A DNA stretch of 64,000 nucleotides from Candidatus Thorarchaeota archaeon (GTDB taxonomy: Archaea; Asgardarchaeota; Thorarchaeia; Thorarchaeales; Thorarchaeaceae), in the NCBI GenBank assembly GCA_016933575.1, contig JAFGAR010000028.1, forward strand, positions 156,530-220,529. Reading direction: 5' to 3'. Made by a program: the position numbers and the translations under genes. This document shows positions 329 to 19,611 of the stretch, one piece after another; position 1 is the stretch's first letter; each line of letters begins with the position of its first letter. The notes beneath the pieces are model-generated. The model saw only the letters and a list, made by a program, of their open reading frames with translations, had not been told where the DNA came from and did no database searches.

Positions 329-3019
329 ATGGACAGTCACGGATGGAGACGCGAACTGGACAAGTTTGCGGAATTGAAAGGAATCCTAGTGTCAGTCAAT
401 CCGATACTAGAAGAACAGGCTAATCGCCAAGTCCGAAACCTCTATGATATCTTTGCTAGTTTAAGCAAGCTAGAGAATGATCTCACTAACGCGGGCTTGC
501 TAAAGAAACGAAAAGTTCAGACTGAAGTTGATAAAACTACTAGTGAGCTTGAGGATGCATTCATGAGAGCCACTCGTGACTTTGCTGAACTATTCAGGAA
601 AGAGCATAGAGATGTAGTTGCGATTATACCCAAATTACAGGCAATTAAACCTGCAGAATCAAAGTCAATCTCGACTATTAGTTTTCCCGGGATTGGCGCA
701 GGGGATATGAAAGACTTTGAGAAATTGATGGAATTTGCCAAGTCATATTCAAAGTTGTATCTGATTATTTTTGAAGATGTATCTCGAGAGGTCAAGTCTG
801 TCTTGGATGAGAACAAGGCTACAGTAGACACCTATGAGAGACATGTCACCATCGACAAGAGTGAGGTATCAACAACAGTATCTAATGAGGATGTCGCGGG
901 TCTCACAATGCGAGACTTGATCATTCTGAATGACAAGCTCATGGAAGACCGGAAATACCTCAATAGTCGGAAAGATGAAGTCAGCAAGATGCTGGGTTCA
1001 TCTTTGGTTAGTGATACTGAATCACTACAGGCATCCGTTGAAACAGCTGCAAGATTGGGACTGGACCTACCAATGGAATTCTCCCAGCAACTGCGAATCA
1101 TAGCTAGAGATGCATCAAAAGCACAAGATCTGACCTCTCTGGTAAGTCTTGAGAACCAGCTCCACACCTCCAAGATAAAGATGGCAAACATGTTGAGAGA
1201 TAAAATCATCAACATCAAGCATGAGGTCACTCAGAAGATTGTAGATGGGGGAATACCAACTACCTCAGAAGTCATTCCAAATCCACCATCTGTATCAGTC
1301 GAAGGGGAAGGTATTGCAGGATTATTATCAAGTTATCAGCGGATGGTAGAGTGGGAAGGTCAAGTAAGAATCGCACTACGTGAAAGACTCTACGAGTTAC
1401 TTGATGATGTTGAGAAAGCCTCTGAAGTCCCCGATGACACTGGTATTAAAGATGTCATCACAGTGAGACAATACATAGCTGATTCAAAGAAGAGTCTGAA
1501 ATCAGCAGACATTGATGAAATGGTGAGAATCTACATCAAAGTCAAAGCTATGGATGAAGAATACCGTAAAGCCATCATCGATAGTATACGAAATTACCTA
1601 ACACGATTCAATGAATTGGCAACTTCAGCAGACCGCGTGCTAGATCATGCCCAGTTAAGCAAGAAGGCTCCCAAAGTCGAAGAGATGGAGGGTGGAATAA
1701 CCTATCTACTTGAGTCACTCTCAACTTTGCGACAAGCTGTAGAGAGTGGAGTAGCAACATTTCGTGAAGCCTGTCAGCAAGAGATTGATGCTATTGTCCA
1801 TGACCTTCAAACAGTCAAACCTGCTTATGCTGAAATCTTCATGCCAATTATTGTAGAACTTGATGAAGGATCCAACAGAATTCAGGTCATGGATGACTTT
1901 ACAGAGATCAAATCAGAGATGCGTTCTATCAAAGAAACAATGCTTGCAAAGGCAAAGGATTCTTTGGAGAACCTGCGCTACAGATTAGGTGTAAAGATTC
2001 GACTCGCTGCTGCGAAGCTCATGGGTGCAGGTGTCGAGATACCTCCCGAAGTACAAGAGGCAATCAGTGAATTGAATAGTATCGGTGTGGCTGCAGACAA
2101 TGTTTTTGCCTTGCCTGCAATCGCAAGAAAGATGATTGAGATATATGAAAAGAAGATCTCGAACAATGTCATTGATCAGCTAGAGTCGGAGGTCGATTCA
2201 CTCATCACCTCCCTTGAGAAGGCAAAAAGCATTGGTGTCAAGGTTGAAAAGGAATTGAAGATGCTCACTTCTTTGAAGGAGAAACCTCCCACAGAGCTCG
2301 AAGAAGCCGCGGATGCCTTTGACAAACTAATGAACCTGACAACATCCCCACAGGTGCACAAGAAGATAAGAGACCGGGTTGATGAGGCCTATCTCCAGAT
2401 CAAGAACGCAGTAGGGCTCTTCGAAGAACAGGGGATGTCTGAGTTCGTTGAAAGGTTAAAGATGCTAATTGACCAAGTACCAGCTAAGCTGGAAAATGAG
2501 TCACCTCATGTTAATGATGCCCTTGATGTTTGCCTGACCCTAGCAAATATCCAGGAAGAGATGCTCAGTGTGATAAAGAACATCTCAAACATGAGTGGAG
2601 AAAGGCACGACCGTGAACTTAGAGAGAAAAGCCAATATTACTCAACAATTGAACGAGTTGTTGAAAACCATCAAGACCAATTCAGCAAAATCGTATTCAA
2701 CATAAACAAGATGAAAGAATTAGAATCAACACTTAATGTTCTATCTAATCTTGATGAAACAATCACATGTTTCCATGAACTTGAAAATATGAGGAAATCG
2801 TGGCTCGAGAAATCAATAGCAATGGATGACTGGCACAAGTCATTAAGAATGTTTATGACTGGTTTCAGTCCTGCAGCAAAGGCTGATGAACGAGACAAGT
2901 TCATTGAAGATGCAATACGAAAAATCAAAGAGACCTATAGTAGAGAAGACATCAGTTCTTATCTCAGCTGGGCGGTAAGGGAAAGCGCTCAAGCATTGGT
3001 CGGCGCAAGAAAAACATAG
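329..3019 (+). CDS. large all-helical / coiled-coil-like protein, first gene of the CetZ-like operon (function unknown)
   Basis: The ORF opens at GTG 299 (906 codons). In-frame ATG 329 is preceded by GGAGG (317-321) with a 7-nt spacer, so 329 is the likelier start. The translation is E/K/L/I/S/D-rich with long amphipathic-helix stretches. It has no TM segment, P-loop or catalytic motif that I recognise. Stop TAG 3017-3019 overlaps the AGGAG that precedes the next gene. Confidence 0.8.
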   Translation: MDSHGWRRELDKFAELKGILVSVNPILEEQANRQVRNLYDIFASLSKLENDLTNAGLLKKRKVQTEVDKTTSELEDAFMRATRDFAELFRKEHRDVVAIIPKLQAIKPAESKSISTISFPGIGAGDMKDFEKLMEFAKSYSKLYLIIFEDVSREVKSVLDENKATVDTYERHVTIDKSEVSTTVSNEDVAGLTMRDLIILNDKLMEDRKYLNSRKDEVSKMLGSSLVSDTESLQASVETAARLGLDLPMEFSQQLRIIARDASKAQDLTSLVSLENQLHTSKIKMANMLRDKIINIKHEVTQKIVDGGIPTTSEVIPNPPSVSVEGEGIAGLLSSYQRMVEWEGQVRIALRERLYELLDDVEKASEVPDDTGIKDVITVRQYIADSKKSLKSADIDEMVRIYIKVKAMDEEYRKAIIDSIRNYLTRFNELATSADRVLDHAQLSKKAPKVEEMEGGITYLLESLSTLRQAVESGVATFREACQQEIDAIVHDLQTVKPAYAEIFMPIIVELDEGSNRIQVMDDFTEIKSEMRSIKETMLAKAKDSLENLRYRLGVKIRLAAAKLMGAGVEIPPEVQEAISELNSIGVAADNVFALPAIARKMIEIYEKKISNNVIDQLESEVDSLITSLEKAKSIGVKVEKELKMLTSLKEKPPTELEEAADAFDKLMNLTTSPQVHKKIRDRVDEAYLQIKNAVGLFEEQGMSEFVERLKMLIDQVPAKLENESPHVNDALDVCLTLANIQEEMLSVIKNISNMSGERHDRELREKSQYYSTIERVVENHQDQFSKIVFNINKMKELESTLNVLSNLDETITCFHELENMRKSWLEKSIAMDDWHKSLRMFMTGFSPAAKADERDKFIEDAIRKIKETYSREDISSYLSWAVRESAQALVGARKT

Positions 3020-3031
3020 GAGTAGCAGTCA

Positions 3032-4417
3032 ATGTTTGGAACCAATCCTGGTGTAGATAGTGATGACACAACCAAAGCAGCTGAAGTTTTTGCAATCGGA
3101 ATAGGAGAATGTGGGTCTAATATTGTAGGTTCATACCTCCAGACTAGCCGCGATAATAAACTGCCATCACGTGTTCGAGGATACCTCCTCATCAATACAG
3201 ATAGAGCAGACCTCACCAAGGTCAGGCAAAAATACAAGATACCCAAGGAAAACACCCTCTTGTATGGCGCGTCTGAGATAGGTGTCGGTGGTCGTTTCAT
3301 GGATGGGTATAATGCAATCATGGAATCCAAGGACATCATCTTCGACCAGTTGAGTAATCTAGGATTTGAGGGTGTATCGGGATTCTGTATCTTTACATCC
3401 TTGGGTGGTGGTACCGGATGCGGCGGAGCTCCTGCTTTAATTGAGCTTCTAAAACAGAGATTCCAAGAAGAAGAAGGTCGCCGTATCTTCGTGTACGTTG
3501 TAGGTATTCTGCCCTTTGAAGGCCAGTCCAGCGAAGCTTTGAACTCAATATGGGCAGTATCTAAACTGCTTCGGGCTCAACTTCAGGAACGAGGCGCAGA
3601 CCTGACTATCTTACTTTCAAACCGAACTATGCTGAAGAGGATTCTTCAATGGAGAAAAGGAGATACTGTGGACTATCTACGAAGAGAACTCGATGTAGAT
3701 ATTGCAGATATTGACTCCATCGAGTCGATGGTACCATCAACCCTCGATGAAGCGAGTGATCTTGAGGCGAGAACAGAACAAGCATTCGTTGAATTGGTGA
3801 ACCCACTCGCTCTGGATGTTGTTGAGGCAATGCTTTCGCCAGGAGTCTGGGAAAGTCATAAAGATGTATTTCCAACAACCGACCTAGCAGATTATTCACG
3901 AAAACTGGACCCAGTAGTGGTACCAGCTCTCTATACTGACATTGGTCTAATCCCTGATGCCGGTAGCATGCCAAAGCAGCTAAGAACAATGATAGACTAT
4001 GCAGTGAAGGAGTGTTCCTATGCAGACGTTGGAGAAGAACCCAATGCTGAATCTGTCTACTATGTTCTTTCAGGACCGACTCATATTGCTAAAGCTGAGT
4101 TTGGTATGCATGTGAAAGAAGCTCTTGACAAATTCATTGCTCCAGGTGCTGCAATCACACCATGTTATGTCCAATATCATGTTCCTGATGCAAAGACAAA
4201 CCTGCTTTTATTGCTCGGACTTCCGAAGATACCAGAGCTTGTCACTATCATCAATGAAGCAACACAACTGGTCAATCTTCATAGCGGAGCATCTCCACTA
4301 AAACAGGGCTGGTTTATGAGATCTAAAGGAACATCTCGAAAGGAACTTGTAGATGCCATTAATGACTTCCGTGAGCTCTTCAGTTATTACATGACTCCTG
4401 GAGAGACTATGCAATAA
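3032..4417 (+). CDS. FtsZ/tubulin-superfamily GTPase, CetZ-like (divergent)
   Basis: The translation carries the full set of tubulin/FtsZ motifs: T1 GIGECGSN (aa 23-30), LINTDRADL, T3-like GVGGRFMDG, T4 signature SLGGGTGCGGAPALIELLK, T5-like ILPFEGQ, T6-like LLSNRTM and T7-like TTDLADY. The GGGTGxGGAP form resembles CetZ/FtsZ more than eukaryotic tubulin. AGGAG lies 9 nt upstream of the ATG. Confidence 0.85.
   Translation: MFGTNPGVDSDDTTKAAEVFAIGIGECGSNIVGSYLQTSRDNKLPSRVRGYLLINTDRADLTKVRQKYKIPKENTLLYGASEIGVGGRFMDGYNAIMESKDIIFDQLSNLGFEGVSGFCIFTSLGGGTGCGGAPALIELLKQRFQEEEGRRIFVYVVGILPFEGQSSEALNSIWAVSKLLRAQLQERGADLTILLSNRTMLKRILQWRKGDTVDYLRRELDVDIADIDSIESMVPSTLDEASDLEARTEQAFVELVNPLALDVVEAMLSPGVWESHKDVFPTTDLADYSRKLDPVVVPALYTDIGLIPDAGSMPKQLRTMIDYAVKECSYADVGEEPNAESVYYVLSGPTHIAKAEFGMHVKEALDKFIAPGAAITPCYVQYHVPDAKTNLLLLLGLPKIPELVTIINEATQLVNLHSGASPLKQGWFMRSKGTSRKELVDAINDFRELFSYYMTPGETMQ
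3404..3427 (+). other. tubulin/FtsZ signature (T4) motif GGGTGCGG coding segment
   Basis: Codons 125-132 of the 3032-4417 ORF read ggt ggt ggt acc gga tgc ggc gga. This translates to GGGTGCGG, matching the [SAG]GGTG[SA]G-type signature but with Cys in the variable position. Confidence 0.8.
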
Positions 4418-4431
4418 TGGAGTGTGAATAA

Positions 4432-5502
4432 TTGTCTGATGGTGACTCCTCATCCTTTCAATACGATGACCTCATTGATAGGCTACTCCTAATTGTAACT
4501 CTCAATTCCACATTGATCCATTTCTTGTTGAGTTCTCAAGTTGAAGGATACATTGATCCTGATCGAGTGGACTCACTGACCCAAGGATTGGTAAGAACGA
4601 GAAAGTGGATGGAAGAAGCCACAACAATGAAAGGTGTACCCCCTTCAACTCAAAATATTTTGAGTCTGATTGTCAAGCGACTTGCACAAGTTGAGAGTCT
4701 GCTACCAAAACTATCAGACAAAGCCAAGTTGGCTGAGAAGACTCCAGCACAGGAGATTCTCTCATTACTTGATGGAGCCCAAGTAAAGACGAAGGTCTCT
4801 TCAGAAGGTGCGTCACTGGAAGCAAGTTCTGAGACTGAGTTGGTTCCTCTTGTAGGAGCTGAGCCTGCAAAGACTTTGGAGGCATATAGAAAGGTCGATG
4901 TAGAGGACGACCAATTTGGGTTGATTGGCCAGACCCAGCGGCTAATCCAGCAATATTCGCCACGTTGTCATATTTTATTGCCGACCTTTTGGCTTGAAGC
5001 ACTTCGAGAGATTCACAAATACAGATCTGAATCTCCATACTTTGGAGATGTTATTGAGCTTCCAGCAAGAATCATTGTAAAGGTGACAAAAAGCCTTCTC
5101 ACAGAAGCACCAGGGGCAAGACTGTTACAAGACTTGATGAAGAATCGACAACAAGAGAGCTATCTCAATAGTTCAGAGATGGAACGTATCGAGCGAGCAG
5201 TTGCAAAATACTTCCAAGGTGTTGAAGCAGTTCTAAAAGAAGACACACTGAATGTCAAGGACAAGATTCTTGAGGCTCAGACTGCATTCGATGGATTTGG
5301 ATGGGGTGGACCAGAGCTAGAGAAACGCCTGATTAAGCGGATAAATCAAGAATGTGAAGAGTCGCTCCAGAATGCTGAATCTGCAACTGATGAAGCAAGA
5401 CAGGTCATTTATGCTGAAATTACAAAGTTGATGAGTAAACTTCAACACGCAATTCTTGCAGAATCACGACCTCGTGAAATCCTCTCGCAAATGAAGCCAT
5501 AG
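4432..5502 (+). CDS. helical protein of unknown function, third gene of the CetZ-like operon
   Basis: A 356-codon ORF starting at TTG 4432. GGAG (4419-4422) lies 9 nt upstream, the same spacing as for the preceding gene. There is no in-frame ATG near the 5' end. The product is charged and helix-rich with one moderately hydrophobic N-terminal helix (RLLLIVTLNSTLIHFLLSS). No recognisable motif. Confidence 0.7.
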   Translation: MSDGDSSSFQYDDLIDRLLLIVTLNSTLIHFLLSSQVEGYIDPDRVDSLTQGLVRTRKWMEEATTMKGVPPSTQNILSLIVKRLAQVESLLPKLSDKAKLAEKTPAQEILSLLDGAQVKTKVSSEGASLEASSETELVPLVGAEPAKTLEAYRKVDVEDDQFGLIGQTQRLIQQYSPRCHILLPTFWLEALREIHKYRSESPYFGDVIELPARIIVKVTKSLLTEAPGARLLQDLMKNRQQESYLNSSEMERIERAVAKYFQGVEAVLKEDTLNVKDKILEAQTAFDGFGWGGPELEKRLIKRINQECEESLQNAESATDEARQVIYAEITKLMSKLQHAILAESRPREILSQMKP

Positions 5503-8130: not shown

Positions 8131-8273
8131 TCTTCCTCCATGGGTAGAAGATAAGATGCCATTAATGCAGATAGAAGTTGCGGTTCATATCAAGAATGAG
8201 TCACTCCATGTAAGCTTGCGTGATAGGAAGCTTTTATTCAGACTTGACGAATGAATCTGACAACGTGGCGAAA

Positions 8274-8816
8274 ATGGCAGACGAAGAGAAATTTCGAATA
8301 GAAGAACCTGAAGAAGAAAAGGAAGAGAAAAAGGGTCTCTTCAGACCACTACCAAAGACAGAACAGACTTTCAAGAGCTCAGGTGGGAAACGCCCACAAC
8401 CTGTTGTAAAACTACTAGGATTCTCAATGTATGAGAAGAATAGAGATCTCCTCTTGCTCATTCTAATACCCATTCTTAGCGCACTTATTAACACTTCAAT
8501 ATACTCCTTTGTTGTCGTAAGTATTTTTGAAAATGATGCTATGTTCCTATTCTTCATGCCTGCCATAGCAGCTATACCAATTGGTCTTGTAGTATCAGAA
8601 ACAGGGAAGGCACTAATTGGAGGCTTTTTGAGTGCATTCTTTTTCTTTGTATTCTTTGTACTCTTTCTCACTTCTCCAGCTCTTATGGTACCGCAACTTG
8701 GATTAGGGAATTTTCTAGTTAGTGGAATCACATTGACTGTCGGGTATTTCATTTTCGTAACAGTAGCAAGCCTACTTGGAGCAGTAATTGGCACAATTGT
8801 CAGGGAATTTGGTTAG
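8274..8816 (+). CDS. membrane protein with acidic/lysine-rich cytoplasmic N-tail and about 4 TM helices
   Basis: The ORF opens at GTG 8220. ATG 8274 (MADEEKFRIEEPEEEKEEKK...) is the first ATG. The C-terminal two thirds is clearly hydrophobic-helical. The antisense ORF 8234-8794 is judged a shadow. Confidence 0.55.
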   Translation: MADEEKFRIEEPEEEKEEKKGLFRPLPKTEQTFKSSGGKRPQPVVKLLGFSMYEKNRDLLLLILIPILSALINTSIYSFVVVSIFENDAMFLFFMPAIAAIPIGLVVSETGKALIGGFLSAFFFFVFFVLFLTSPALMVPQLGLGNFLVSGITLTVGYFIFVTVASLLGAVIGTIVREFG

Positions 8817-8921: not shown

Positions 8922-9527
8922 ATGAAGAGGATAGGCGTCCTAATCAGCGGGAGAGGTACAAATCTTCAAGCACTTATTGATGCTGGATGCCGCGGGGATC
9001 TAGGTGGAAAAATCGTAGTTGTCATTAGCAACAAAAACAATGCACTTGGCGTGGAACGTGCAAGAAGAGCTGGAATACAAGTTGAAATAATTACTAAACG
9101 CATGTTTCCAGATCGAATTGAGTTTGATAAAGCTCTTATCAAGATATTAAACGAACAGAGAGTAGATTTGGTTGTCCTTGCAGGTTACATGAGAATGTTC
9201 ACTGAACAATTCATCACCGAGTTTTCTTCACGGATAATAAATGTGCATCCTTCACTACTGCCCTCGTTTAAAGGAGTAAAGGCACAATGGCAGGCTGTCG
9301 AATATGGAACCCGCGTGTCTGGGTGCACAACACACTTCGTTACGCTGGAAATGGATTCAGGACCTATAATTCTTCAACGAGCGATTCCAGTGTTTTTTGA
9401 TGATGATGGAGAAACATTGTCTAATAGAATCTTACCAGAAGAACATAGAATATTGGTGAAGAGTGTAAGGCTGTTTTGTGAAGACAAATTGAGAATAGAG
9501 GGCGAAAGGGTTCTCATATTGGAGTAG
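8922..9527 (+). CDS. purN: phosphoribosylglycinamide formyltransferase
   Basis: The N-terminus RIGVLISGRGTNLQALIDA and the NVHPSLLPSFKG motif are typical of PurN. Length is 201 aa. Confidence 0.9.
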   Translation: MKRIGVLISGRGTNLQALIDAGCRGDLGGKIVVVISNKNNALGVERARRAGIQVEIITKRMFPDRIEFDKALIKILNEQRVDLVVLAGYMRMFTEQFITEFSSRIINVHPSLLPSFKGVKAQWQAVEYGTRVSGCTTHFVTLEMDSGPIILQRAIPVFFDDDGETLSNRILPEEHRILVKSVRLFCEDKLRIEGERVLILE

Positions 9528-9536
9528 TGGTCAATA

Positions 9537-10937
9537 ATGTGTGGTGTGTTAGGAATATTGGGCAATTATCCTCTTACAATGGCGAGAGGCTTACTTCTCT
9601 TGCTTGCCCATAGAGGACAGGATGCGTCAGGACTTCTTTGGGTAGTCGGTAATGAGGCAACTTCTAGTAAATCAATAGGGAATCCGGATCGCATCTTTGT
9701 ACCGGAAATTGCTTCAAGCCAAATCTTGGGTAGCACACGATACCCGACAACTGGGAAACGTGTTGCTTCTGAGGAGGACTTGGATACCTTTGTTGGTCCG
9801 TTCAATGTAGGAGACCTTTCACTAACACATAATGGAAACATCACAAACATGCATTCCATTAGCAACCTGAAGTTTGATTGCGATACTGAATTCATTGCAG
9901 TAAAATTAACGCAAAATCTCACTGAAAACAATGGTAACCTACCCAGTGCATTCTCAGCTCTGCAATCAGAGGTAGATGGAGCATTCAGTCTTGTGGGAGT
10001 TTACAGAGGGAAACTCTTTGCCTACCGAGATAGTCATGGTTTCAAACCACTTGTGTTCGGTCGTAGCAAACAGAAGACAATAGTAGCATCAGAATCCACC
10101 GTTCTAGACATGGCAGGAGTTCCTCTTGAGAGAGATGTCTATCCCGGAGAGCTGTTAATATTTGGAGATGGCGGAACCATGGAATCATATTCCATCTCCC
10201 AGAGCCTGACACATTCGCACTGTTTCTTTGAATACGTATACTTCGCACATCCAGCTGCGACCTTAGAGAACCAATTAGTATATGATGTAAGATTCCGACT
10301 TGGTAGAGTCTTGGCTCAGACTTTCCTTAAGATGAACCTAGAACGACCGGATTATGTAGTTCCGGTTCCAGATACAAGTCGACCTGCGGCACAAGCCATG
10401 GCAGAAACACTCTCAGTTCCAATGAGAGAGATCATCTTGAAGAATCGATACTTGGGGCGAACTTTCATAGTGCGCTCTCAAGAGGAAAGAGATGCCATGG
10501 CTAGAAGCAAATATCTCTATTTGGATGATAAGATTCGAGGAAAGATCATTCTCGTTGTTGATGATAGTATTGTCCGAGGTACCACTGCAAAGATGATTGT
10601 TGCAGATCTAAAGAAACGCGGAGCAGCGAAGGTGTATTTTGCTGTCACATGTCCTCCGCAGACGCACCCCTGCTATTATGGGATTGATATCTCAACAGAT
10701 ACTGAACTTATTGCGTCAACAACAGAAATTGAAGCAATTGCAGAGTATATTGAAGCTGATGCACTCATCTATCAAGAAGAGCATACTCTATCAAATGCTA
10801 TTGGACTCAAGGACCTTTGTCTTGCATGCCTTAATGGAGAATATCCGACAGAACATGCGCGTAGGATTAGAGAAGAGTTGCAGGAACAAGGCGCATCATC
10901 TATTGAGCGCGATTATGAGAGGGATTTCTCAAAATGA
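9537..10937 (+). CDS. purF: amidophosphoribosyltransferase
   Basis: The MCGVLGI N-terminus provides the Ntn cysteine. PVPDTSRPAA and DDSIVRGTT are PRTase motifs. The stop overlaps the next start (ATGA, 10934-10937). Confidence 0.95.
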   Translation: MCGVLGILGNYPLTMARGLLLLLAHRGQDASGLLWVVGNEATSSKSIGNPDRIFVPEIASSQILGSTRYPTTGKRVASEEDLDTFVGPFNVGDLSLTHNGNITNMHSISNLKFDCDTEFIAVKLTQNLTENNGNLPSAFSALQSEVDGAFSLVGVYRGKLFAYRDSHGFKPLVFGRSKQKTIVASESTVLDMAGVPLERDVYPGELLIFGDGGTMESYSISQSLTHSHCFFEYVYFAHPAATLENQLVYDVRFRLGRVLAQTFLKMNLERPDYVVPVPDTSRPAAQAMAETLSVPMREIILKNRYLGRTFIVRSQEERDAMARSKYLYLDDKIRGKIILVVDDSIVRGTTAKMIVADLKKRGAAKVYFAVTCPPQTHPCYYGIDISTDTELIASTTEIEAIAEYIEADALIYQEEHTLSNAIGLKDLCLACLNGEYPTEHARRIREELQEQGASSIERDYERDFSK

Positions 10938-11887
10938 AGATTGGTACGCTTGCAAGTCATAGTGCTCTTAACATTATCACTGGAGCAAAAGCTGAGGGTT
11001 TTGAAACTGCATTGTATTGCACTCCAGATAGAATACCTTTCTACAAATCGTTTGGCCTTGGTGATTCTATTATTGAGTTAGAATCATTTGATGAGCTGCT
11101 TGAGCTGGATCTCTCAGATGTTATCATCATCCCTCATGGTTCATTTGTGGCATATATTGGAGCAGATAGAATTCTCAAATCGGACCTCCAAATATTTGGC
11201 AACAAAGAACTGCTAAAATGGGAAGAGGATAGAAACTTAAAATCGCAGATGATGATTGAAGCAGGTTTGAATGTTCCACGTGAGTATAAACACTTGGATG
11301 AGATAGATAGTCCAGTTATAGTGAAAACGCATGGAGCAGCAGGTGGAGAAGGTTATTTCATTGCTGCAAATAAAAAGGAGATCGAAGAGAATCTAGACCC
11401 GAGCAAAAAATACTCTTTCCAAGAATATATCGTTGGTACAAAGATCTTTACAACTTATTTCAATTCGATTGCTCAAGATAGACTAGAGATCTTTGGAGCA
11501 GATATCAGATACGAAACAGATGCTGATGCAAACCTAAGGTTCGATGATAGACCATCCTTTATTGTGATTGGCAACCTCCCCGTTGTTCTTCGTGAGTCAA
11601 CGCTTGCTCAATACTTTGACATGGGTGTGGGATTTGTCAATGCTTTCCAAAAACTAGTAGGACAGAAACTTGTGGGTCCATTCTGTATTGAAACCATTAT
11701 TGATAGAAATCAGAAGATCTACTCTTTCGAGTTCAGTGGTCGTATCGTTGCTGGGACAAATGTCTGGATGCCAACATCACCATATTCCTTTACTCTCTTT
11801 GGAGAACAGATGTGGATGGGTAGAAGAATAGCTCTCGAAATAAAGCAATTGATGGCTTCGAGTATGTTAGATGAGGTGTTGAGGTGA
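10934..11887 (+). CDS. purP: PurP-type 5-formaminoimidazole-4-carboxamide ribonucleotide (FAICAR) synthetase, ATP-grasp
   Basis: The N-terminus IGTLASHSALNIITGAKAEGF and the ATP-grasp-like body resemble archaeal PurP. Its position inside the purine operon supports the call. Confidence 0.75.
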   Translation: MKIGTLASHSALNIITGAKAEGFETALYCTPDRIPFYKSFGLGDSIIELESFDELLELDLSDVIIIPHGSFVAYIGADRILKSDLQIFGNKELLKWEEDRNLKSQMMIEAGLNVPREYKHLDEIDSPVIVKTHGAAGGEGYFIAANKKEIEENLDPSKKYSFQEYIVGTKIFTTYFNSIAQDRLEIFGADIRYETDADANLRFDDRPSFIVIGNLPVVLRESTLAQYFDMGVGFVNAFQKLVGQKLVGPFCIETIIDRNQKIYSFEFSGRIVAGTNVWMPTSPYSFTLFGEQMWMGRRIALEIKQLMASSMLDEVLR

Positions 11888-11981
11888 TTTTGTTGAATCT
11901 TGATATTGAGCGCAAGACTTACAAACGGGGCAAGCTTGAAGACCATAAAGGGAGAACTTTGATTCTACTTTTGGAGGTTGG

Positions 11982-13058
11982 ATGATGAGGCTTCCAACTA
12001 TTGGTATGCTGGGTTCTCATAGCGCAGAGGAGATAGGTGTTTCAGCAAAAGCCAATGGATTTCAGACAGTCGTGGTATGTCAAAAAGGACGTGACAAACT
12101 CTATACAAAGTACAACAAGCATCTGTTCGACGAAGTGATTCTCTTAGATAATTTCAGAGATATGATTGAAGAGGAAACTCAGGAAAGGCTTCGTGAACTG
12201 GATACACTATGGATTCCTAATCGCTCATTTTCAGTGTATGTTGGATATGAAAAAATTGAGAGAGACTTCAAAATACCAATGTACGGAAACAGGAATATGC
12301 TGAGAGTAGAGGAGAGAGGACTTGAGAGGGATCAATACTGGTTACTAAAAGAATCAGGAATAAGAATCCCCAAGGCGTTCCGTCCAGACACGATAGATAG
12401 ATTGGCAATTATCAAAGTACAACAAAAAGGGTTACCTCTTGAAAGAGCATTTTTCTACGCCAACTCTCCTGCTGATTATGATAAGACAAGTAAGGCTATG
12501 ATTAAGCAGGGACTGATTTCCGAGAGGGATTTAGAAGAAGCAACCATTGAGGAGTTTGTAATAGCTCCTAGATTCAATGCTAACTTTCAAGCGTACGCAA
12601 TGAATGATTATTTTGGAGACCTTGATCTCGTAGGTTTTGATGACAGAGTACAAACAAGTCTTGGAGGTCTCTTGAACTTGCCAGCTAGTGAACAGCTTAA
12701 ACTGGATATCACAGTGATGAATGAAGAAGTTGGACATAAGGGAGTGACCATGCGAGAATCAAAGAAACCACTGGTATACGACGCTGCTGAGAAATTATTG
12801 GCAGGTGTTGCAAAGAATTTCCCACCTCGAATGTTGGGACTTTTCTCACTGCAAGGGGCAATCACAGAAGATTCAGAATTCGTTGTTTTTGATTTGAGCC
12901 CAAGAGTTCCTGGAGCCCCTTGCATAGGACCTACAAGCCCTGAGATGAGAAGATTGTCCTTGAAGTTTAGAAAGGACGTTCATTCACCATTGGACCTGTG
13001 CATGTTTGATATTATGAAAGCTGCCGAGGAGGAAAGGCTCTCTGAGGCATCAACGTAA
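11982..13058 (+). CDS. PurP-family paralog (ATP-grasp, FAICAR synthetase-like)
   Basis: The N-terminus IGMLGSHSAEEIGVSAKANGF is parallel to that of the preceding gene. It is a 358-aa tandem paralog. Its stop overlaps the next start (TAATG, 13056-13060). Confidence 0.7.
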   Translation: MMRLPTIGMLGSHSAEEIGVSAKANGFQTVVVCQKGRDKLYTKYNKHLFDEVILLDNFRDMIEEETQERLRELDTLWIPNRSFSVYVGYEKIERDFKIPMYGNRNMLRVEERGLERDQYWLLKESGIRIPKAFRPDTIDRLAIIKVQQKGLPLERAFFYANSPADYDKTSKAMIKQGLISERDLEEATIEEFVIAPRFNANFQAYAMNDYFGDLDLVGFDDRVQTSLGGLLNLPASEQLKLDITVMNEEVGHKGVTMRESKKPLVYDAAEKLLAGVAKNFPPRMLGLFSLQGAITEDSEFVVFDLSPRVPGAPCIGPTSPEMRRLSLKFRKDVHSPLDLCMFDIMKAAEEERLSEAST

Positions 13059-14050
13059 TGGAGAAGTATGAGGGAGAAAAAACTATGAAACTAATTCATA
13101 AGGGAAAAGTAAAGCGAGTTCTCGAAGATCCCGAATCAAAAGACCGTGTAGTTATCGAATTTACTGATACAGTGACCGCTGGAGATGGAGCAAAGAAACA
13201 AGAGTTCACTGGAAAGGGGAAACTTGCTTGTGACTTCTCTGAATTCCTCTTTGGTTATCTTGAAGGTAAAGGAATTGATACGCATTTCATTAAGAGACTG
13301 AAAGGACCTCAACTAATGTGCACGAAGGTAGAAATATTTCCTATCGAATTCGTTTGCCGAAATCTAGTTGCAGGTTCTTTTAGCAGACGCTATGGAACAG
13401 AGAAAGGCACTGTGCTGGATTCCCCCCTAGTGGAATATTTTATGAAAAATGATGATTTGCATGACCCGCTCATCACTGGAGAATCTATCATTCGATTAGG
13501 GCTTGTTTCTCAGAACGATTTGGAATTCATGACTAAAGTGACTCTATCTGTAAATTACTACCTCAGTGAATTATTGAAACAGCAGAAACTCACTCTCGTA
13601 GATTTCAAACTTGAGTTTGGAAAGGCAGAAAATGGTGAGATAGTTCTTGCAGATGAGATTTCTCCTGATACTATGAGGGTGTGGGATGCTACAGCGACAT
13701 CGCTCGATAAAGATGTCTTTAGAGAGGATAAGGGTGACCTCATTGCAACATACGAAAAGTTACTCACCGCTGTGAAGACTGCAAGATCTGAGGATGTTGA
13801 AGCGAGATTGGAATCAGTCTACATCATTGTGGAACCAAAGCCGGCGATAAAGAATCCTCCAGGTGAAGTGACTCGAAAAGCTCTCATTAGATTAGGCTTT
13901 GCTGAAGTCGAGGATGTACGAATGGGCAAGGTCTTCAATATCACCCTCAAGAAACCCTTGACCTCAGAGATTCTAAAGCATCTAGAAGTGATGAATGTAA
14001 AACTTCTCTCGAATCCCATTTCTGAGAAACATAAGGTGAGGTTTGAGTAG
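13058..14050 (+). CDS. purC-purS: SAICAR synthetase fused to PurS (FGAM synthase small subunit)
   Basis: The N-terminal ~240 aa is PurC-like (LIHKGKVKRV..., ADEISPDTMRVWD). The C-terminal ~85 aa is PurS-like (VYIIVEPKPAIKNPPGEVTRKALIRLGFAEVEDVRMGKVFNITLK). An alternative start is ATG 13085. Confidence 0.85.
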   Translation: MEKYEGEKTMKLIHKGKVKRVLEDPESKDRVVIEFTDTVTAGDGAKKQEFTGKGKLACDFSEFLFGYLEGKGIDTHFIKRLKGPQLMCTKVEIFPIEFVCRNLVAGSFSRRYGTEKGTVLDSPLVEYFMKNDDLHDPLITGESIIRLGLVSQNDLEFMTKVTLSVNYYLSELLKQQKLTLVDFKLEFGKAENGEIVLADEISPDTMRVWDATATSLDKDVFREDKGDLIATYEKLLTAVKTARSEDVEARLESVYIIVEPKPAIKNPPGEVTRKALIRLGFAEVEDVRMGKVFNITLKKPLTSEILKHLEVMNVKLLSNPISEKHKVRFE

Positions 14051-14745
14051 TGTCGATTGCAGTCCTCAGATTTCCTGGAACAAATAACGAAAATGATGTT
14101 CTTAGGGCTCTATCACTTATTGAGGGAGCAAAACCATATCTTGTACCTTCTCGGAAGGGACTCGCGGGTCTAGAGGATGCTGATGGTGTCTTTATTCCCG
14201 GAGGATTCTCATATGGAGATTATCTTCGGGCAGGTGCAGTTGCATCAGTGGAAACAATTACTGAAGGAGTAAGAGATCTAGCTGAAGATGGACGTCCAAT
14301 TATTGGCGTATGTAATGGTTTTCAAATACTTACTGAGATGGGATTGCTTCCAGGTGCCTTGCTTCCAAATAGGACTGCGCGTTTTGTATGTGGGTGGATC
14401 AATCTTAGGGTCTGTGAGAATCCAACGATATTTACAGAGGGATTGGAGAATGCAGTCCTTCGGCTGCCAATCGCCCATGCAGAAGGGAATTATTATTGTA
14501 CGAATGAAGATCTCACTTCTCTCAAGGATGAAGGACGCATACCGCTACGATACTGCAATGAGTTAGGAGAGATCGATGAAGCTTCTAATCCAAATGGATC
14601 CATAGGAAATATTGCAGGTGTCATTAGTCAGAATGGCAATATACTGGGACTCATGCCTCATCCTGAACGAGCAAGTAGACAGATCCTCGGTTCGGTTGAT
14701 GGTTTAGCAATATTAGAAAACTTTGTGAGGGCAACAAAATGCTGA
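14050..14745 (+). CDS. purQ: FGAM synthase glutamine amidotransferase subunit
   Basis: GTG start overlapping the upstream stop (TAGTG). GVCNGFQIL carries the nucleophile Cys, and MPHPER carries the His/Glu of the triad. Confidence 0.9.
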   Translation: MSIAVLRFPGTNNENDVLRALSLIEGAKPYLVPSRKGLAGLEDADGVFIPGGFSYGDYLRAGAVASVETITEGVRDLAEDGRPIIGVCNGFQILTEMGLLPGALLPNRTARFVCGWINLRVCENPTIFTEGLENAVLRLPIAHAEGNYYCTNEDLTSLKDEGRIPLRYCNELGEIDEASNPNGSIGNIAGVISQNGNILGLMPHPERASRQILGSVDGLAILENFVRATKC

Positions 14746-16907
14746 ACAAATCAGAATTGGAATATGCAAAGTCAGTTCTTGGTAGAGAGCCCACGCAGAC
14801 CGAACTTGGTATGCTTGATGTTCTATGGTCAGAACATTGCAGCTATAAGAGTAGTAAACGATGGTTTTACTTGTTTAAAACTGAAGGTGAAAAAGTTGCT
14901 CTTGGAATTGGCGAAGGCGCTGGACTCGTCGATATTGGTGACGGCTATCTCATAGGAGTTGCGATGGAGTCCCACAATCACCCAAGTCAGATTGACCCGT
15001 ACAATGGAGCTGCTACAGGCGTAGGTGGCATAATTAGAGATGTCATCTCACAAGGCTGTAAAGCAGTAGGTCTAATGAATTGCCTACGGTTTGGACCCCC
15101 TTCAAAACCGCGTAATGCATACCTCTTGGAGAATGTTGTCCGAGGCATCTCTGAATATGGAAATAGTGTAGGTATTCCGGTGGTTGGAGGAGAACTAGAG
15201 TTCGATGATTCGTATGATGATAACTGCCTTGTGAATGTAGTTTGTGTCGGATGGATAAAACCAGAATATATTGTACGTAGTAAAGCCAAGACCACTGGAC
15301 ATCACTTAGTTTTATTTGGTTCAACGACAGGGAGAGACGGTATCGCTGGAGTCAGTTTTGCCTCTGAGACCTTTTCTGATGATGAAGATGAGAATCGTGG
15401 TGCAGTTCAAATTGGGGATCCTTTATCAAAGAAAGTCTTGATAGACACACTTCAGGAACTCGTTGAAGAGAAACTACTAGAAGGCCTTCAAGACTTTGGT
15501 GGTGGTGGTATGACATCAGCAGCTGGGGAACTTGCATCAGCTGGTGGAACAGGAGTAGAGATTGATCTTGATAAAGTTCCTTTAAGAGAGGCAGATATGG
15601 AACCATGGGAGATAGTGATTTCCGAGTCTCAGGAGCGCATGCTCGGTATTGTCGCACCGGAAAACCTTGATCGAGTCATCCTACTTCTTGAGAAGAACGA
15701 TACTCCGTATGGTATCATTGGAAAAGTGACAGATGATAAACACTACACTGCAAAGTGGAATGGTGAGATTAAGGCTCGATTACCAATAGACCTCCTTGTC
15801 GGAGGATTTCCAGTTCCAGAAAGAGTAGAAGGAAAGATAACTCCACAGACAGAATCTATGTCATGGTTCAATGAACCTGAGGACTATAGGAGTATCTTAC
15901 TTGAACTAATTGAATCGATCAATATCTGCGATAGATCATGGGTCTATAGTCAATATGACCAACATGTGCAATCCAATACAGTTGTAGACCTTGGGGAGAA
16001 CGGTGGTGTACTTGAGTTTCCTAATGGAAGACTACTTGCTTTTACTAGTGATTGCAACTCTTTTTGGTGTCTATTAGATCCTCAACAGGGAACAGCTAAT
16101 TCAGCATGTGAATCACTCAGGAATCTTATATCTATGGGAGCAAGTCCAATCTTCATAGCGGATTGCCTAAACTTTGGAAATCCAGAACGACCTGAATCAT
16201 ATTGTCAGTTTGTGGAATCTGTACGCGGTCTCGGTCGCTTCTCTCATGACTTCAATATTCCAATTGTAGGGGGGAATGTGTCACTCTATAACGAGTCCTC
16301 TGTGGATAATCAAGCGAAACGAATCAATCCAACACCTCAGATAATGATTGCTGGCATCTTTGAAAGGAACTTCACCCCGGTTAGACGAAATCTTTGTACA
16401 CCTTGGGCAAATATTTTCCTCATCGGCGAAACGCTTCCAGAATTGAATGGCTCAGAATTCCAGAGAATCACCATTGGTCAGGTAAAGGGAATTCCACCTA
16501 GGTATCGACCTGATGAAGAAAAGAGAGGAATGAATGTCATCTTGGAGGCTCATAAGAAAGGACTCATCAGATCATGCAACAATGTAGGACGCGGTGGAAT
16601 AGCCGCTGCACTCTTGAAGATGGCTCTCAATAGTCACTATGGATTCAAACTCAATTTAGATTATATTCCAGGCACTGTGAGTAGTGTTGCTCAACGGCTT
16701 TTCTCAGAAACCTCTGGAAGGTACTTGGCAGAAGTCACAGAGAGTAATCAGCCAGAATTCCTAACAATAGTAGAGAAATATGGTTCGACAGTATGTGAAC
16801 TTGGTTTAACGATAGCAGATCCTATTGCAGATTTTGGAAGATTCAGTATACCAATGAAAGAAGTCAAGGATGCATACTCAAGGGGTCTAAGAAAATACAT
16901 GGAGTGA
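14739..16907 (+). CDS. purL: FGAM synthase II (large subunit)
   Basis: The ESHNHPSQIDPYNGAATGVGGIIRD motif and the duplicated PurM-like domains indicate PurL. Length is 722 aa, with a 7-nt overlap with purQ. Confidence 0.95.
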   Translation: MLNKSELEYAKSVLGREPTQTELGMLDVLWSEHCSYKSSKRWFYLFKTEGEKVALGIGEGAGLVDIGDGYLIGVAMESHNHPSQIDPYNGAATGVGGIIRDVISQGCKAVGLMNCLRFGPPSKPRNAYLLENVVRGISEYGNSVGIPVVGGELEFDDSYDDNCLVNVVCVGWIKPEYIVRSKAKTTGHHLVLFGSTTGRDGIAGVSFASETFSDDEDENRGAVQIGDPLSKKVLIDTLQELVEEKLLEGLQDFGGGGMTSAAGELASAGGTGVEIDLDKVPLREADMEPWEIVISESQERMLGIVAPENLDRVILLLEKNDTPYGIIGKVTDDKHYTAKWNGEIKARLPIDLLVGGFPVPERVEGKITPQTESMSWFNEPEDYRSILLELIESINICDRSWVYSQYDQHVQSNTVVDLGENGGVLEFPNGRLLAFTSDCNSFWCLLDPQQGTANSACESLRNLISMGASPIFIADCLNFGNPERPESYCQFVESVRGLGRFSHDFNIPIVGGNVSLYNESSVDNQAKRINPTPQIMIAGIFERNFTPVRRNLCTPWANIFLIGETLPELNGSEFQRITIGQVKGIPPRYRPDEEKRGMNVILEAHKKGLIRSCNNVGRGGIAAALLKMALNSHYGFKLNLDYIPGTVSSVAQRLFSETSGRYLAEVTESNQPEFLTIVEKYGSTVCELGLTIADPIADFGRFSIPMKEVKDAYSRGLRKYME

Positions 16908-16913
16908 TGCTTA

Positions 16914-18347
16914 ATGGTTGATGTATTGATCATCGCTGGGAGTAAGAGTGATGAAAGAATCGTTGAGAAAGCGACTAATGTTCTCGATGAATTGGAGATT
17001 CAATATGAAGTGAAATATGCATCTGCCCATCGAGAACCAGAAAAAGTGAAGTCTATCGTAAAAAAGAGTGAGGCAAGAGTCATTATTGCCATCGCTGGTC
17101 TGTCGGCTGCATTACCTGGAGTGGTTGCTTCTCATACCTCGAGACCTGTTATTGGTGTGCCAGTAAACGTTACCCTGGATGGATTGGATGCACTTCTTTC
17201 AATCATGCAGATGCCAAAAGGAGTTCCAGTGGCAACCGTTGGAATTGATAATGGACAGAATGCGGCATATCTTGCAGCACGGATTCTGGAAGTTAACACT
17301 AAAGAAACCACAAGAATACCAGCAACATATGCTGAAGCTGGTGTCGATGAGAGTCTAGTAGCAAAAGGACTTGAGGTTCTTGGTAAGTATGTAAGACAAT
17401 CATTCAAGCATGGCGAGATTATGCAAGACTACGGTCATTATGCTAATACCGTCAAGATTTCAGAAGATCTCTGTCTTGCTCTCTCAACAGATGGTGTTGG
17501 GAGCAAGGTGCTTGTTGCTGAACTCTCTGAAAAGTATGATACAATAGGGGAAGACTGCGTTGCGATGAATGTCAATGATCTCATTTGTATCGGAGCGACT
17601 CCTGTTGGATTTGTTGATTATCTAGCATCCGAGAAACCACTTCCTACTGAAACAATTGAGGAAATAGCAAAGGGACTACTGAAGGCGTGTGATGAATCTG
17701 AAATTCCGATTCTTGGCGGAGAAACGGCCATTCTGCCAGATATGATAAGAGGTCAGAAAGGACCGGGTCTCGATCTAGCAGGAACTGCGGTTGGGATTGC
17801 CAAACCATCAGAATTATTCGATGGAAGTAGTATTCAATCCGGTGATGTCATACTAGGAATTTCATCAAATGGTATTCATTCTAATGGTTTCACTCTGGCG
17901 CGAAAAGTTCTGTTAGCAAAATACAAACTTCAAGACAAGTTGCCATGGGGAGTAACACTAGCAGAAGAACTATTGAAACCAACTAGAATTTACGTACCTC
18001 ATTTCAAAGCAATGAAGGAGGCAAGAATTGAAATCAAGGGTCTCGCACATATCACAGGCTCTGGATTCAAGAAGATATTGAGACTTGGTCAATTGAGATT
18101 CATCATTTCAGATTATCCAGACATTCCGCCGATTTTTGATTTGATAAAGAAAACAGGAAATATCTCATGGGAAGAGATGTTCACGACATTCAATATGGGG
18201 ATAGGGCTGATTGTTGTTGTGCCAGAGAACCAGGAGGAGATGGCTAAGCGAGTTCTTTCGAATTTGGATGAAACATATCGACTAGGAATTGTCGAGGATT
18301 CTATGAAAGGCGAAGTTAGAATAGAACCATTTGGAGTGAAAATTTAG
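16914..18347 (+). CDS. purE-purM: PurE (carboxyaminoimidazole ribonucleotide mutase/carboxylase) fused to PurM (AIR synthetase)
   Basis: The N-terminal ~125 aa is PurE-like ([38 protein letters not shown]). The remaining ~345 aa is PurM-like (YAEAGVD..., [17 protein letters not shown]). It is a single uninterrupted 477-codon ORF. Confidence 0.85.
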
Positions 18348-19600
18348 TGTCGAAGGTACTTCTTATAGGAAACGGGGCTAGAGAACATGCAGTCGGAGTA
18401 GCCTTGATTCGTTCAGGAGTTGAGCTTCATACTCATATGGACAGATTGAATCCTGGTCTCGCAAAGATCTCTAAAGAGGTATCAATTGGTTCGACAACAG
18501 ATATCAAAAAACTACCAAATCTATGGGGCTATGATTATGCTTTCATTGGTCCAGAAGCGCCCTTAGCCTCAGGGGTAACAGATTTCATCACCAATCGAGG
18601 CGTACCTTGTATAGGACCAAATCAAGCAGCTGCTATGATTGAAACTAGCAAGTCCTTTGCTCGGATTGTTATCGACCAAGTGATTCCGCAAGCTAATCCA
18701 CGATTCATGGTTGTAAGAAGTATCGATGACCTCAGGAAATTCGAGAAACAGATTGGCATTGAGAATATCGTTGTGAAACCTAATGGTCTCACGGGAGGAA
18801 AAGGTGTCAAGATCTTCGGAGAACATCTGAACTCTCGAGATGAACTAGAAAAATATGCTATCGACCTTCTCACAAAGACAGGTGTAGTAGTCCTTGAAGA
18901 GAAGCTCAATGGAACTGAATTTACAGTACAAGCGTTTGCGGATGGTGGAACGCTTGAGTTCATGCCACTCGTTCGTGATTATAAACGAGCATTTGATGGC
19001 GACACAGGACCGAATACTGGTTCAATGGGATCATATTCAGCATCAGATCATGGACTGGAATATGTTTCCCAAGAAGACTTTGAGTTGGCTAAGACCATTA
19101 TGAACGCAACAATGATTGGAATCAAAAAGAAAACAGGTTCTGAGTTCAAAGGTATTCTATATGGACAGTTCATGAAAACTCAAGAAGGAGTGAAAGTAAT
19201 CGAATATAATGCAAGATTTGGCGATCCAGAAGCAATGAATGTTATGTCGATACTATCAAGCTCTATGGATGAAGTCTGCCAAAGAATAATTGATGGAAAT
19301 CTTGGCAAAGTCGATTTTGAAAAGAGTGCTACTGTCTGTGTGTATATTGTCCCTGAGGGTTATCCAGGTCCGGATGTAATCAAAGATAGCCCATTAACAA
19401 TTGATGATAGCGTGCAAAGCAATCTGTATTATGCTTCTGTATACGAAAAAGATCAACAAATATTCACGACAGGGAGTAGAGCAATTGGAGTCCTAGCGAA
19501 AGGTGATACTGTGAAAGCTGCTAGGGAGATGGCATATCAAGATGTCAAGAGAATCAAAGGGCGAGTAAGATATCGATCTGATATTGCAGCTCATTTGTAA
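18347..19600 (+). CDS. purD: phosphoribosylamine-glycine ligase (GAR synthetase)
   Basis: GTG start overlapping the upstream stop (TAGTG). The N-terminus VLLIGNGAREHA and the ATP-grasp body are typical of PurD. Length is 417 aa. Confidence 0.9.
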   Translation: MSKVLLIGNGAREHAVGVALIRSGVELHTHMDRLNPGLAKISKEVSIGSTTDIKKLPNLWGYDYAFIGPEAPLASGVTDFITNRGVPCIGPNQAAAMIETSKSFARIVIDQVIPQANPRFMVVRSIDDLRKFEKQIGIENIVVKPNGLTGGKGVKIFGEHLNSRDELEKYAIDLLTKTGVVVLEEKLNGTEFTVQAFADGGTLEFMPLVRDYKRAFDGDTGPNTGSMGSYSASDHGLEYVSQEDFELAKTIMNATMIGIKKKTGSEFKGILYGQFMKTQEGVKVIEYNARFGDPEAMNVMSILSSSMDEVCQRIIDGNLGKVDFEKSATVCVYIVPEGYPGPDVIKDSPLTIDDSVQSNLYYASVYEKDQQIFTTGSRAIGVLAKGDTVKAAREMAYQDVKRIKGRVRYRSDIAAHL

Positions 19601-19611
19601 GGAGGGATATA

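Follow-up and report, generated by a model that had tools for sequence, protein, structure and literature searches.

The closest described relatives of the protein studied here form Asg.Tub, a CetZ-like clade of Asgard archaea that Santana-Molina, del Saz-Navarro and Devos (2023, Front Microbiol; PMC9871819) defined from four sequences (OLS26264.1, PWI48967.1, KXH77455.1 and OLS30664.1) and whose distribution they called sparse. The position of the clade was unstable between CetZ and tubulin. The authors argued against a tubulin affiliation and concluded that it is closer to CetZ, although it fell outside the supported node of canonical CetZ and its C-terminal hidden Markov model (HMM) gave no cross-match to CetZ. 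That paper describes the neighbours of Asg.Tub only as unknown genes with coiled-coil regions, assigns the clade no function and, in the text consulted, mentions neither a cysteine in the T4 loop nor an insertion. A literature search found no functional or structural study of Asg.Tub: recent work centred on actin, FtsZ1/2 and the rare true tubulins (Odin, AtubA/B), and used the clade only as a tree outgroup. Here we analyse one member, the gene AsgTub, in a stretch of 64,000 nucleotides (nt) of contig JAFGAR010000028.1 from Candidatus Thorarchaeota archaeon (the window). The present analysis adds to the published record how broad the family is and how sharply it is bounded, where its insertion lies and how it is built, that the cysteine is shared family-wide and, above all, a conserved cassette with two orphan partner genes, which we name UP and DN (upstream and downstream partner). 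We give a probability of roughly 60% to the reading that AsgTub is a GTP-dependent filament former with UP and DN as its dedicated partners. The cassette is laid out as follows.

329..3019, + strand: UP, 896 amino acids (aa), start codon ATG at 329, an orphan all-alpha elongated protein
3018..3022, + strand: AGGAG, a ribosome-binding-like motif read in the sequence, overlapping the UP stop codon
3032..4417, + strand: AsgTub, 461 aa, an open reading frame (ORF) for a GTPase of the tubulin/FtsZ superfamily
4419..4422, + strand: GGAG motif read in the gap between AsgTub and DN
4432..5502, + strand: DN, 356 aa, start codon TTG, an orphan helical protein

AsgTub is thus the middle gene of three on the same strand, separated from UP by 12 nt and from DN by 14 nt, and a Shine-Dalgarno-like motif precedes each start. 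For UP this is GGAGGT at 317-322, ahead of the ATG at 329; the mechanically called ORF begins at a GTG at 299, and the 896-aa form is found, 100% identical, in the protein collection (P0121). We analysed synteny by tblastn of the three proteins against 87 related loci. Wherever flanks exist, the genes keep the same order and strand, in loci from Thor-, Hermod-, Borr-, Sif- and Heimdall-/Hodarchaeales and from 'Odin'- and 'Asgardarchaeia'-labelled metagenome-assembled genomes (MAGs). In practically all loci with enough flank, the gene directly before the tubulin gene is a UP homologue, mostly a few to ~19 nt away or slightly overlapping it, and a DN homologue comes next after the tubulin gene in nearly all loci. 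Identity between classes is 49-62% for AsgTub, 20-30% for UP and 25-30% for DN. The tubulin-like protein is thus under strong purifying selection compared with its neighbours, a constraint of the kind typical of polymer formers.

AsgTub belongs to the clade already published as Asg.Tub rather than to a new family, as judged from its sequence identity to clade members and from a gap in score, from 499 to 159 bits, at the edge of the family. OLS26264.1 of the authors' C-terminal alignment is one of our homologues (P0115), 49% identical over 97% of the query, and the Thorarchaeales sequences KXH77455.1 and OLS30664.1 of the same alignment are near-identical to AsgTub from residue ~224 to the end. 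An earlier note on this DNA, made from the letters alone, had allowed that close homologues might already be described as an established family. This holds as far as the named clade goes, and does not extend to the cysteine and the insertion, which the published text consulted does not report. A search of 5.8 billion proteins retrieved 153 homologues, all the named ones from Asgard archaea, with identities of 85-93% within Thor and of 49-63% for Hermod, Borr, Sif, Heimdall/Hodarchaeales and 'Asgardarchaeia'. Relatives were found in at least 124 genomes of a scan with one genome per species, and the 80 loci kept from it all belong to Asgard or unclassified archaeal MAGs. Asg.Tub is hence far more widespread than first reported. 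The boundary was drawn with HMMER, run against all 1.84 billion cluster representatives (50% clustering). At this level the family consists of two full-length clusters, scoring 686 and 499 bits, the second labelled as Baldr/Odin; beyond it the score is 159 bits for a sister lineage (P0243/P0423) and at most 76 bits for everything else.

The motifs of the GTPase and the segments that follow them are placed as listed here.

3098..3121, + strand: T1 loop GIGECGSN, aa 23-30, containing Cys27 (homologue alignment)
3404..3433, + strand: T4 signature GGGTGCGGAP, aa 125-134, containing Cys130 (homologue alignment)
3512..3526, + strand: T5-like PFEGQ, aa 161-165, with P161, F162 and Q165 invariant
3617..3625, + strand: T6, S-N197-R, with N197 invariant and aligned with FtsZ N165 and the CetZ-like Asn
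3653..3769, + strand: family-specific insertion in the H6-H7 linker, aa 208-246 (anchor distances, AlphaFold model, entropy)
3770..3844, + strand: helix H7, aa 247-271, with the conserved Asn257 (helix at 243-271 in the AlphaFold model)
3872..3895, + strand: T7 loop and start of H8, PTTDLADY, aa 281-288, with T283, D284 and D287 invariant
3908..4390, + strand: C-terminal domain, aa 293-400 (S7-S10, H9, H10), then three helices, aa 401-453 (AlphaFold model)

The Pfam Tubulin profile PF00091 matches residues 18-202 with E = 1.8e-20 and 74.5 bits (cut-off 33). Together with the T4 signature and the two-domain fold described below, this makes AsgTub a member of the tubulin/FtsZ superfamily. In the homologue alignment, which spans 49-89% identity, the invariant residues named in the list are joined by G23, G25, G28, N30, G84, G86, G87, G125-G129, G131, G132 and N257, the last of which aligns with FtsZ N186 in 8 of 8 aligned superfamily members. 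AsgTub keeps all the GTP-binding elements, namely T1, T3, T4, T5, T6 and the H7 Asn, and has the putative catalytic acids of T7: D284 and D287 are invariant and DLAD matches the DFAD of FtsZ. The earlier note had called the protein a divergent GTPase of this superfamily, with a cysteine in the T4 signature and a retained T7-like acidic loop. All of this stands, down to the exact translation of the 461-aa ORF and the positions of the motifs, including LINTDRADL at residues 53-61; the cysteine proves to be family-wide and D284/D287 sit at the H7/T7 loop/H8 position of the AlphaFold model.

The T4 loop reads GGGTGCGG at residues 125-132, with invariant glycines and threonine and with Cys, not Ser, Thr or Ala, at the sixth position. 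This residue is Cys in 113 of the 116 homologues aligned, Ser in two and Ala in one; T1 is similarly stable (G[IVML]GECGSN in 108 of the 116) and T7 reads TTDLADY or TTDIGDF in almost all. The equivalent T4 residue is Ser in CetZ1, CetZ2 and AtubA, and Thr in E. coli FtsZ. Cysteine is found there in the remote relatives P0243, P0254 and P0255 as well, and is therefore not exclusive to Asg.Tub. Cys130 is a sterically conservative replacement of Ser/Thr in the phosphate-binding loop and should not abolish GTP binding. We saw no evidence for a special role of this residue. A redox switch formed by Cys27 and Cys130 was considered and rejected, because the two are lost independently: P0035 lacks Cys27 and keeps Cys130, while P0094 lacks Cys130 and keeps Cys27.

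An AlphaFold model built from a 20-sequence alignment (mean predicted local distance difference test, pLDDT, 81.5; predicted template modelling score, pTM, 0.83) shows a complete two-domain tubulin fold, with elements in the canonical order S1-S6, H7, T7, H8 and S7-S10. Strand S6 covers residues 191-196, H6 197-207 and a long H7 243-271, and H8 begins at 285, so that D284/D287 are predicted to lie where the T7 loop passes into H8, the position of the catalytic acids in FtsZ. Foldseek matched the model over its full length to OdinTubulin, gamma- and beta-tubulin, CetZ1, CetZ2 and CetZ, all with E ~1e-17. The tubulins (OdinTubulin 7evh, AtubA 9f6t, gamma- and beta-tubulin) are the top matches by E-value and query coverage, and their template modelling (TM) scores normalised to the query are 0.59-0.64, as they cover more of AsgTub; normalised to the target, CetZ scores 0.70-0.79, with CetZ1 highest (0.79). 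The modelled fold is thus equally like tubulin and CetZ and does not discriminate between them.

Sequence comparison places AsgTub apart from each established family. The closest solved structures are Haloferax volcanii CetZ1 (4b46, E = 6.7e-11), Methanosaeta thermophila CetZ (3zid) and H. volcanii CetZ2 (4b45), and the alignment to them is restricted to the N-terminal domain, residues ~14-198; the profile of AsgTub matches AtubA and OdinTubulin over the N-terminal domain only (E = 2.5e-5 to 7.5e-5). Pfam gave no FtsZ_C or Tubulin_C match, and the ftsZ equivalog TIGR00065 matched weakly over residues 12-142, with 35.9 bits against a cut-off of 295.2. AsgTub is therefore not a CetZ homologue over its full length, nor an FtsZ or a bona fide tubulin. 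As judged from sequence, its motifs are a mosaic: a T1 Cys as in beta-tubulin and one CetZ, a tubulin-like ExxN and an FtsZ-type T7. T1 is of tubulin/CetZ type (GxGxCG/AG; 3zid has GVGQCGN there) and differs from the glycine-rich GVGGGGGN of E. coli FtsZ, and the ExxN of T5/H5 aligns with EPYN of AtubA. The acidic T7 is shared with CetZ in the general form DxxD/E and with FtsZ in the form D-[FL]-A-D (D209-F-A-D212 in E. coli), along with the T6 and H7 Asn, and differs from the tubulin GxxNxD...E/K. After the C-terminal domain, AsgTub has a helical extension as CetZ does, whose three helices resemble H11/H12 of tubulins; FtsZ lacks these helices and the ~40 extra residues before H7. From CetZ, AsgTub further differs by a C-terminal domain without detectable sequence similarity, by its Asgard rather than euryarchaeotal range and by its genomic context. 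At its very end (residues 447-456) the protein carries a conserved aromatic motif, ELF[SG]YY[MI]xP, and after it a variable tail of a few residues. In this it may resemble FtsZ, which has short partner-binding peptides at its C-terminus.

The insertion was located with three anchors, the T6 Asn, the H7 Asn and the acidic T7 motif, in a MAFFT alignment of eight sequences, two of which were E. coli FtsZ and P0261, a CetZ-like protein. T7 itself was anchored via the AlphaFold topology, the DxAD motif and this alignment, as the C-terminal half gave no match in the PDB. The distance from the T6 Asn to the H7 Asn is 60 residues in AsgTub (N197-N257), 21 in E. coli FtsZ and 18 in P0261, while that from the H7 Asn to the T7 Asp is 27, 23 and 28, respectively. 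Since the excess lies entirely between N197 and N257 and the distance from H7 to T7 is normal, the insertion belongs to H6 and the H6-H7 linker, before H7, where all of its 39-42 residues sit. Over the whole interval, N197 is 87 residues from D284 and 90 from D287, compared with 44 (N165 to D209) and 47 (to D212) in E. coli FtsZ and 46 in the CetZ-like protein. The earlier note had given this spacing as about double that of FtsZ, which the actual E. coli sequence bears out, and had described an acidic insertion of ~45 residues between T6 and T7. The insertion is real and acidic, and is confined to the part before H7 rather than spread across the interval. The counter-possibility that the true T7 lies elsewhere, at a normal spacing, is at odds with the normal H7-to-T7 distance and the canonical topology of the model.

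All family members have the insertion, with a T6-to-T7 distance of 77-96 residues across 115-116 homologues and a median net charge of -4 for the extra segment. Its first part (208-224) is moderately conserved, with an entropy of 1.9 bits compared with ~1.0 for the GTPase core; the second (225-246) is acidic, varies in length and, at 2.6 bits, is as variable as the termini. In the AlphaFold model, residues 208-242 are mostly a low-confidence stretch with two short helices, and pLDDT is below 50 at 209-216, 223-227, 229-231 and 235-241. From the known fold, the insertion would lie near the nucleotide-side surface of the N-terminal domain. The H6-H7 linker of the sister lineage P0243/P0423 has only ~10 extra residues, so the full insertion seems, on this comparison, to have arisen within the Asg.Tub family or at its base.

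This sister lineage is rare, with two members (P0243, at L089:8001-9374, and P0423) that are ~28% identical to Asg.Tub. Its T4 loop also has Cys (AGGTGCGG). It has no UP-like gene upstream, and an overlapping gene of 262 aa lies downstream, whose match to the DN C-terminal motif by hhalign is weak (probability 46%). In a further remote lineage of the tubulin superfamily, P0254 (L090:8001-9308), T4 reads GGGTGCGS, again with Cys, and the linker has no insertion. Among the genes around it are those for a beta-propeller protein of 913 aa, several unknowns and a ubiquitin-like modification set (ThiF/E1, UQ_con/E2, JAB, YukD-like), a neighbourhood that recalls the haloarchaeal adaptin-like/CetZ-like systems of PMC10936438.

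The two partner genes resemble nothing in the databases searched. UP, which varies from 870 to 1400 aa across its family and is most conserved in its C-terminal ~120 residues, had no match in Pfam and no sequence or profile match in the PDB. Its AlphaFold model is all helix, and a pLDDT of 84 with a pTM of only 0.36 indicates confidently predicted helices in an elongated, non-globular arrangement. Foldseek of this model against the PDB gave a best E of 0.37, and hhalign found no internal repeats. We rejected a GCP-like, spectrin-like or microtubule-associated-protein-like identity for UP, as there was no Pfam or PDB profile match and GCP chains appeared only with Foldseek E = 3.3-5 and probability 0.02. 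In two loci, L086 and L026 (the latter a closed Thorarchaeota chromosome), UP seems to be truncated or to carry a frameshift.

DN homologues are ~340 aa long. A conserved helix at the N-terminus (LIxxLLxxxTxNSTLIH) is joined by a variable linker to a conserved C-terminal domain, which is marked by YSxRxHxLLPxFW, EAPxARLLQDL and FxWGxPxLEKR and ends in MKP. By these features a 392-aa protein of Heimdall LC_3, missed by BLAST, is a DN homologue. DN had no sequence match in Pfam or the PDB, and the Pfam and PDB searches detected no DNA-binding domain in UP or DN. Neither a known adaptor (best match BLOC-1 subunit 2, E = 0.065, not significant) nor a second, degenerate tubulin (no similarity to AsgTub) was retained as an identity for DN.

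In FtsZ, CetZ and tubulin, the acidic T7 loop completes the active site of the neighbouring subunit. As the GTP-binding elements and the acidic T7 are both kept, filament formation with polymerisation-activated hydrolysis is therefore the most likely mode of action of AsgTub. By analogy with these proteins, it would bind GTP and assemble head-to-tail into filaments, and D287, with D284, of one subunit would activate hydrolysis in the next, so that polymerisation would switch the GTPase on, as is expected from FtsZ. From the synteny, UP, AsgTub and DN are probably co-transcribed and UP and DN would be dedicated partners: UP, as a long all-helical rod-like protein, and DN, as a two-domain helical one, would most likely attach to the subunit or to the filament and act as scaffold, cross-linker or adaptor. 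By its position and composition the flexible acidic insertion, and/or the conserved C-terminal helices ending in LF[SG]YY, would be the most plausible docking surface for them or modulator of filament contacts. The earlier note had likewise suggested, as possibilities, a polymer-activated GTPase and a partner-binding surface at the insertion. The concept of a tubulin-superfamily polymer encoded beside small or helical accessory genes is the same in BtubA/B-BtubC and TubZ-TubR-TubY. In such systems the accessory proteins bind and regulate the polymer. BtubC is described in PMC9871819. The roles of UP and DN may be likened to that of BtubC for BtubA/B and of TubR/TubY for TubZ, although no homology of either to BtubC, TubR or TubY was found.

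Several points weigh against this reading. Polymerisation, GTPase activity and the binding of UP and DN are read from sequence and models, and the roles of UP and DN are guesses, since these proteins have no recognisable homologues or folds. The C-terminal half of AsgTub (residues 249-461 alone) had no PDB sequence match at E <= 10, and the confidence of the AlphaFold model in the insertion falls below 50. An insertion near the nucleotide-side surface could also hinder longitudinal contacts rather than help them. Finally, the cassette is not perfectly kept: DN is absent from at least one locus, the Heimdall-type L007, and UP appears truncated in a few assemblies.

The possible obstruction of the longitudinal interface by a large insertion on the nucleotide side of the N-terminal domain is one reason to consider the main alternative, a GTPase that does not polymerise. 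Bound stably to UP and/or DN, it would serve for example as a cap, a nucleator or a regulatory switch, in loose analogy to gamma-tubulin and the large helical GCP proteins that hold it. Such a complex would account for the constant pairing with a large all-helical protein and for the presence of gamma-tubulin among the top structural matches. We regard it as unlikely: the UP model shows no GCP similarity beyond the negligible Foldseek hits given above, its Pfam search gave no GCP domain, the AsgTub model is as similar to CetZ and tubulin as it is to gamma-tubulin, and an invariant T7 DxxD makes sense chiefly if subunits activate one another. The best sequence matches among solved structures (CetZ1, 3zid and 4b45), the top target-normalised TM-score (CetZ1) and the naming of some database records as 'Tubulin-like protein CetZ' would instead fit a plain Asgard orthologue of euryarchaeal CetZ, which controls cell shape like CetZ1 and is flanked by genes unlinked to it in function. 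This is slightly less probable still, as the similarity is limited to the N-terminal GTPase domain, the published phylogeny and C-terminal HMM cited at the outset separate Asg.Tub from canonical CetZ, and the insertion and T4 Cys are absent from the CetZ sequences compared. Moreover, chance would hardly account for synteny with UP and DN that is kept between Asgard classes even where identity is as low as 49%.

A divergent FtsZ acting directly in cell division would explain the FtsZ-like DLAD and the weak TIGR00065 match. It is improbable given the size of the shortfall from the TIGR00065 cut-off, the lack of FtsZ_C and a T1 that reads GIGECGSN and not GGGGGN. In addition, Asgard archaea generally have canonical FtsZ1/FtsZ2 elsewhere, according to the literature, and there are no division genes in the neighbourhood of the cassette. 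The three-gene arrangement with unknown partners is superficially like tubZ-tubR-tubY, which raises the case of a segregation GTPase of TubZ/PhuZ type, brought in by a plasmid or virus that has integrated. This is the least probable of the alternatives and close to refuted. Unlike plasmid-borne or horizontally acquired systems of the TubZ and BtubA/B kind, UP-AsgTub-DN is chromosomal and present in at least 124 species genomes, with a divergence pattern that looks consistent with vertical inheritance across a phylum-level group. AsgTub had no tblastn match among 72,556 plasmid and 50,697 phage records, and neither partner has a detected DNA-binding domain. The window is an ordinary stretch of chromosome, with housekeeping genes around the cassette (ADP-forming acetyl-CoA synthetase, type 2 IPP isomerase, a complete purine operon and DNA ligase) and a flat GC content.

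We thus return to AsgTub as a filament former with dedicated partners. A more far-reaching and tentative possibility is that UP, AsgTub and DN make up an unrecognised, Asgard-specific cytoskeletal module, widespread and perhaps ancestral, in which the helical proteins build, bundle or anchor the filament by docking on the acidic H6-H7 insertion or on the C-terminal helices. If so, the closest archaeal relatives of eukaryotes would have a third tubulin-superfamily system beside FtsZ1/2 and the Atub/Odin tubulins, and its filament-associated proteins would resemble nothing known. True tubulins in archaea are described as patchy or restricted in PMC9856176 and PMC9871819. The wide spread and slow evolution of Asg.Tub and its two orphan partner genes make it a well-defined candidate for an unexplored filament system, and a concrete target for research on the Asgard cytoskeleton. 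Nothing known is overturned: AsgTub shares its fold and motifs, and probably its mode of action, with the rest of the superfamily, and the mechanism would be unsurprising.

Some loci depart from the compact arrangement of the cassette. The gap between UP and the tubulin gene is 513 nt in L049:5967-6482, and gaps of 300-380 nt precede DN in L063:7851-8229 and L067:7689-8005. Apparent fusions of AsgTub and DN in L041, L045 and L075 were rejected, as real TAG or TAA stops stand at the junctions. Small Arf/Ras-like GTPases were rejected as a fourth component, since tblastn found them in only 5 of the 88 loci searched and the window has none. Where they occur, in Heimdall-type and related loci, Arf/Ras-family genes lie a few kb from the cassette (L001:102-1037; L005:4532-5113; L006:1-468; also in L002; and 9516-11729, 12134-13000 and 15544-17338 in L007), and in L005 such a gene is directly upstream of UP. 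This proximity is probably lineage-specific, or due to chance given the many small GTPases of Asgard genomes.

Elsewhere in the window, tblastn with E. coli FtsZ found no second tubulin/FtsZ gene. The purine genes form a co-directional cluster at 8922-21165 (+), with a purN-like formyltransferase, purF, two PurP-type genes (DUF1246/DUF1297), purQ, purL, purD and guaA. It includes two apparent fusions, of SAICAR synthetase with PurS (13058-14050) and of AIR carboxylase with AIR synthetase (purE-purM, 16914-18347). Several sizeable ORFs of 196-522 aa had no Pfam match at E <= 1e-4: 38133-39533 (-), 47629-48516 (-), 56099-57667 (-), 24744-25334 (-) and 8220-8816 (+). They may be further Asgard-specific orphans, or some of them may not be genes; the last shares its position with a similarly sized ORF that overlaps it on the other strand. 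A gene for a P-loop ATPase of the MinD/ParA/CbiA type lies at 29362-30189 (-), ~25 kb from the cassette.

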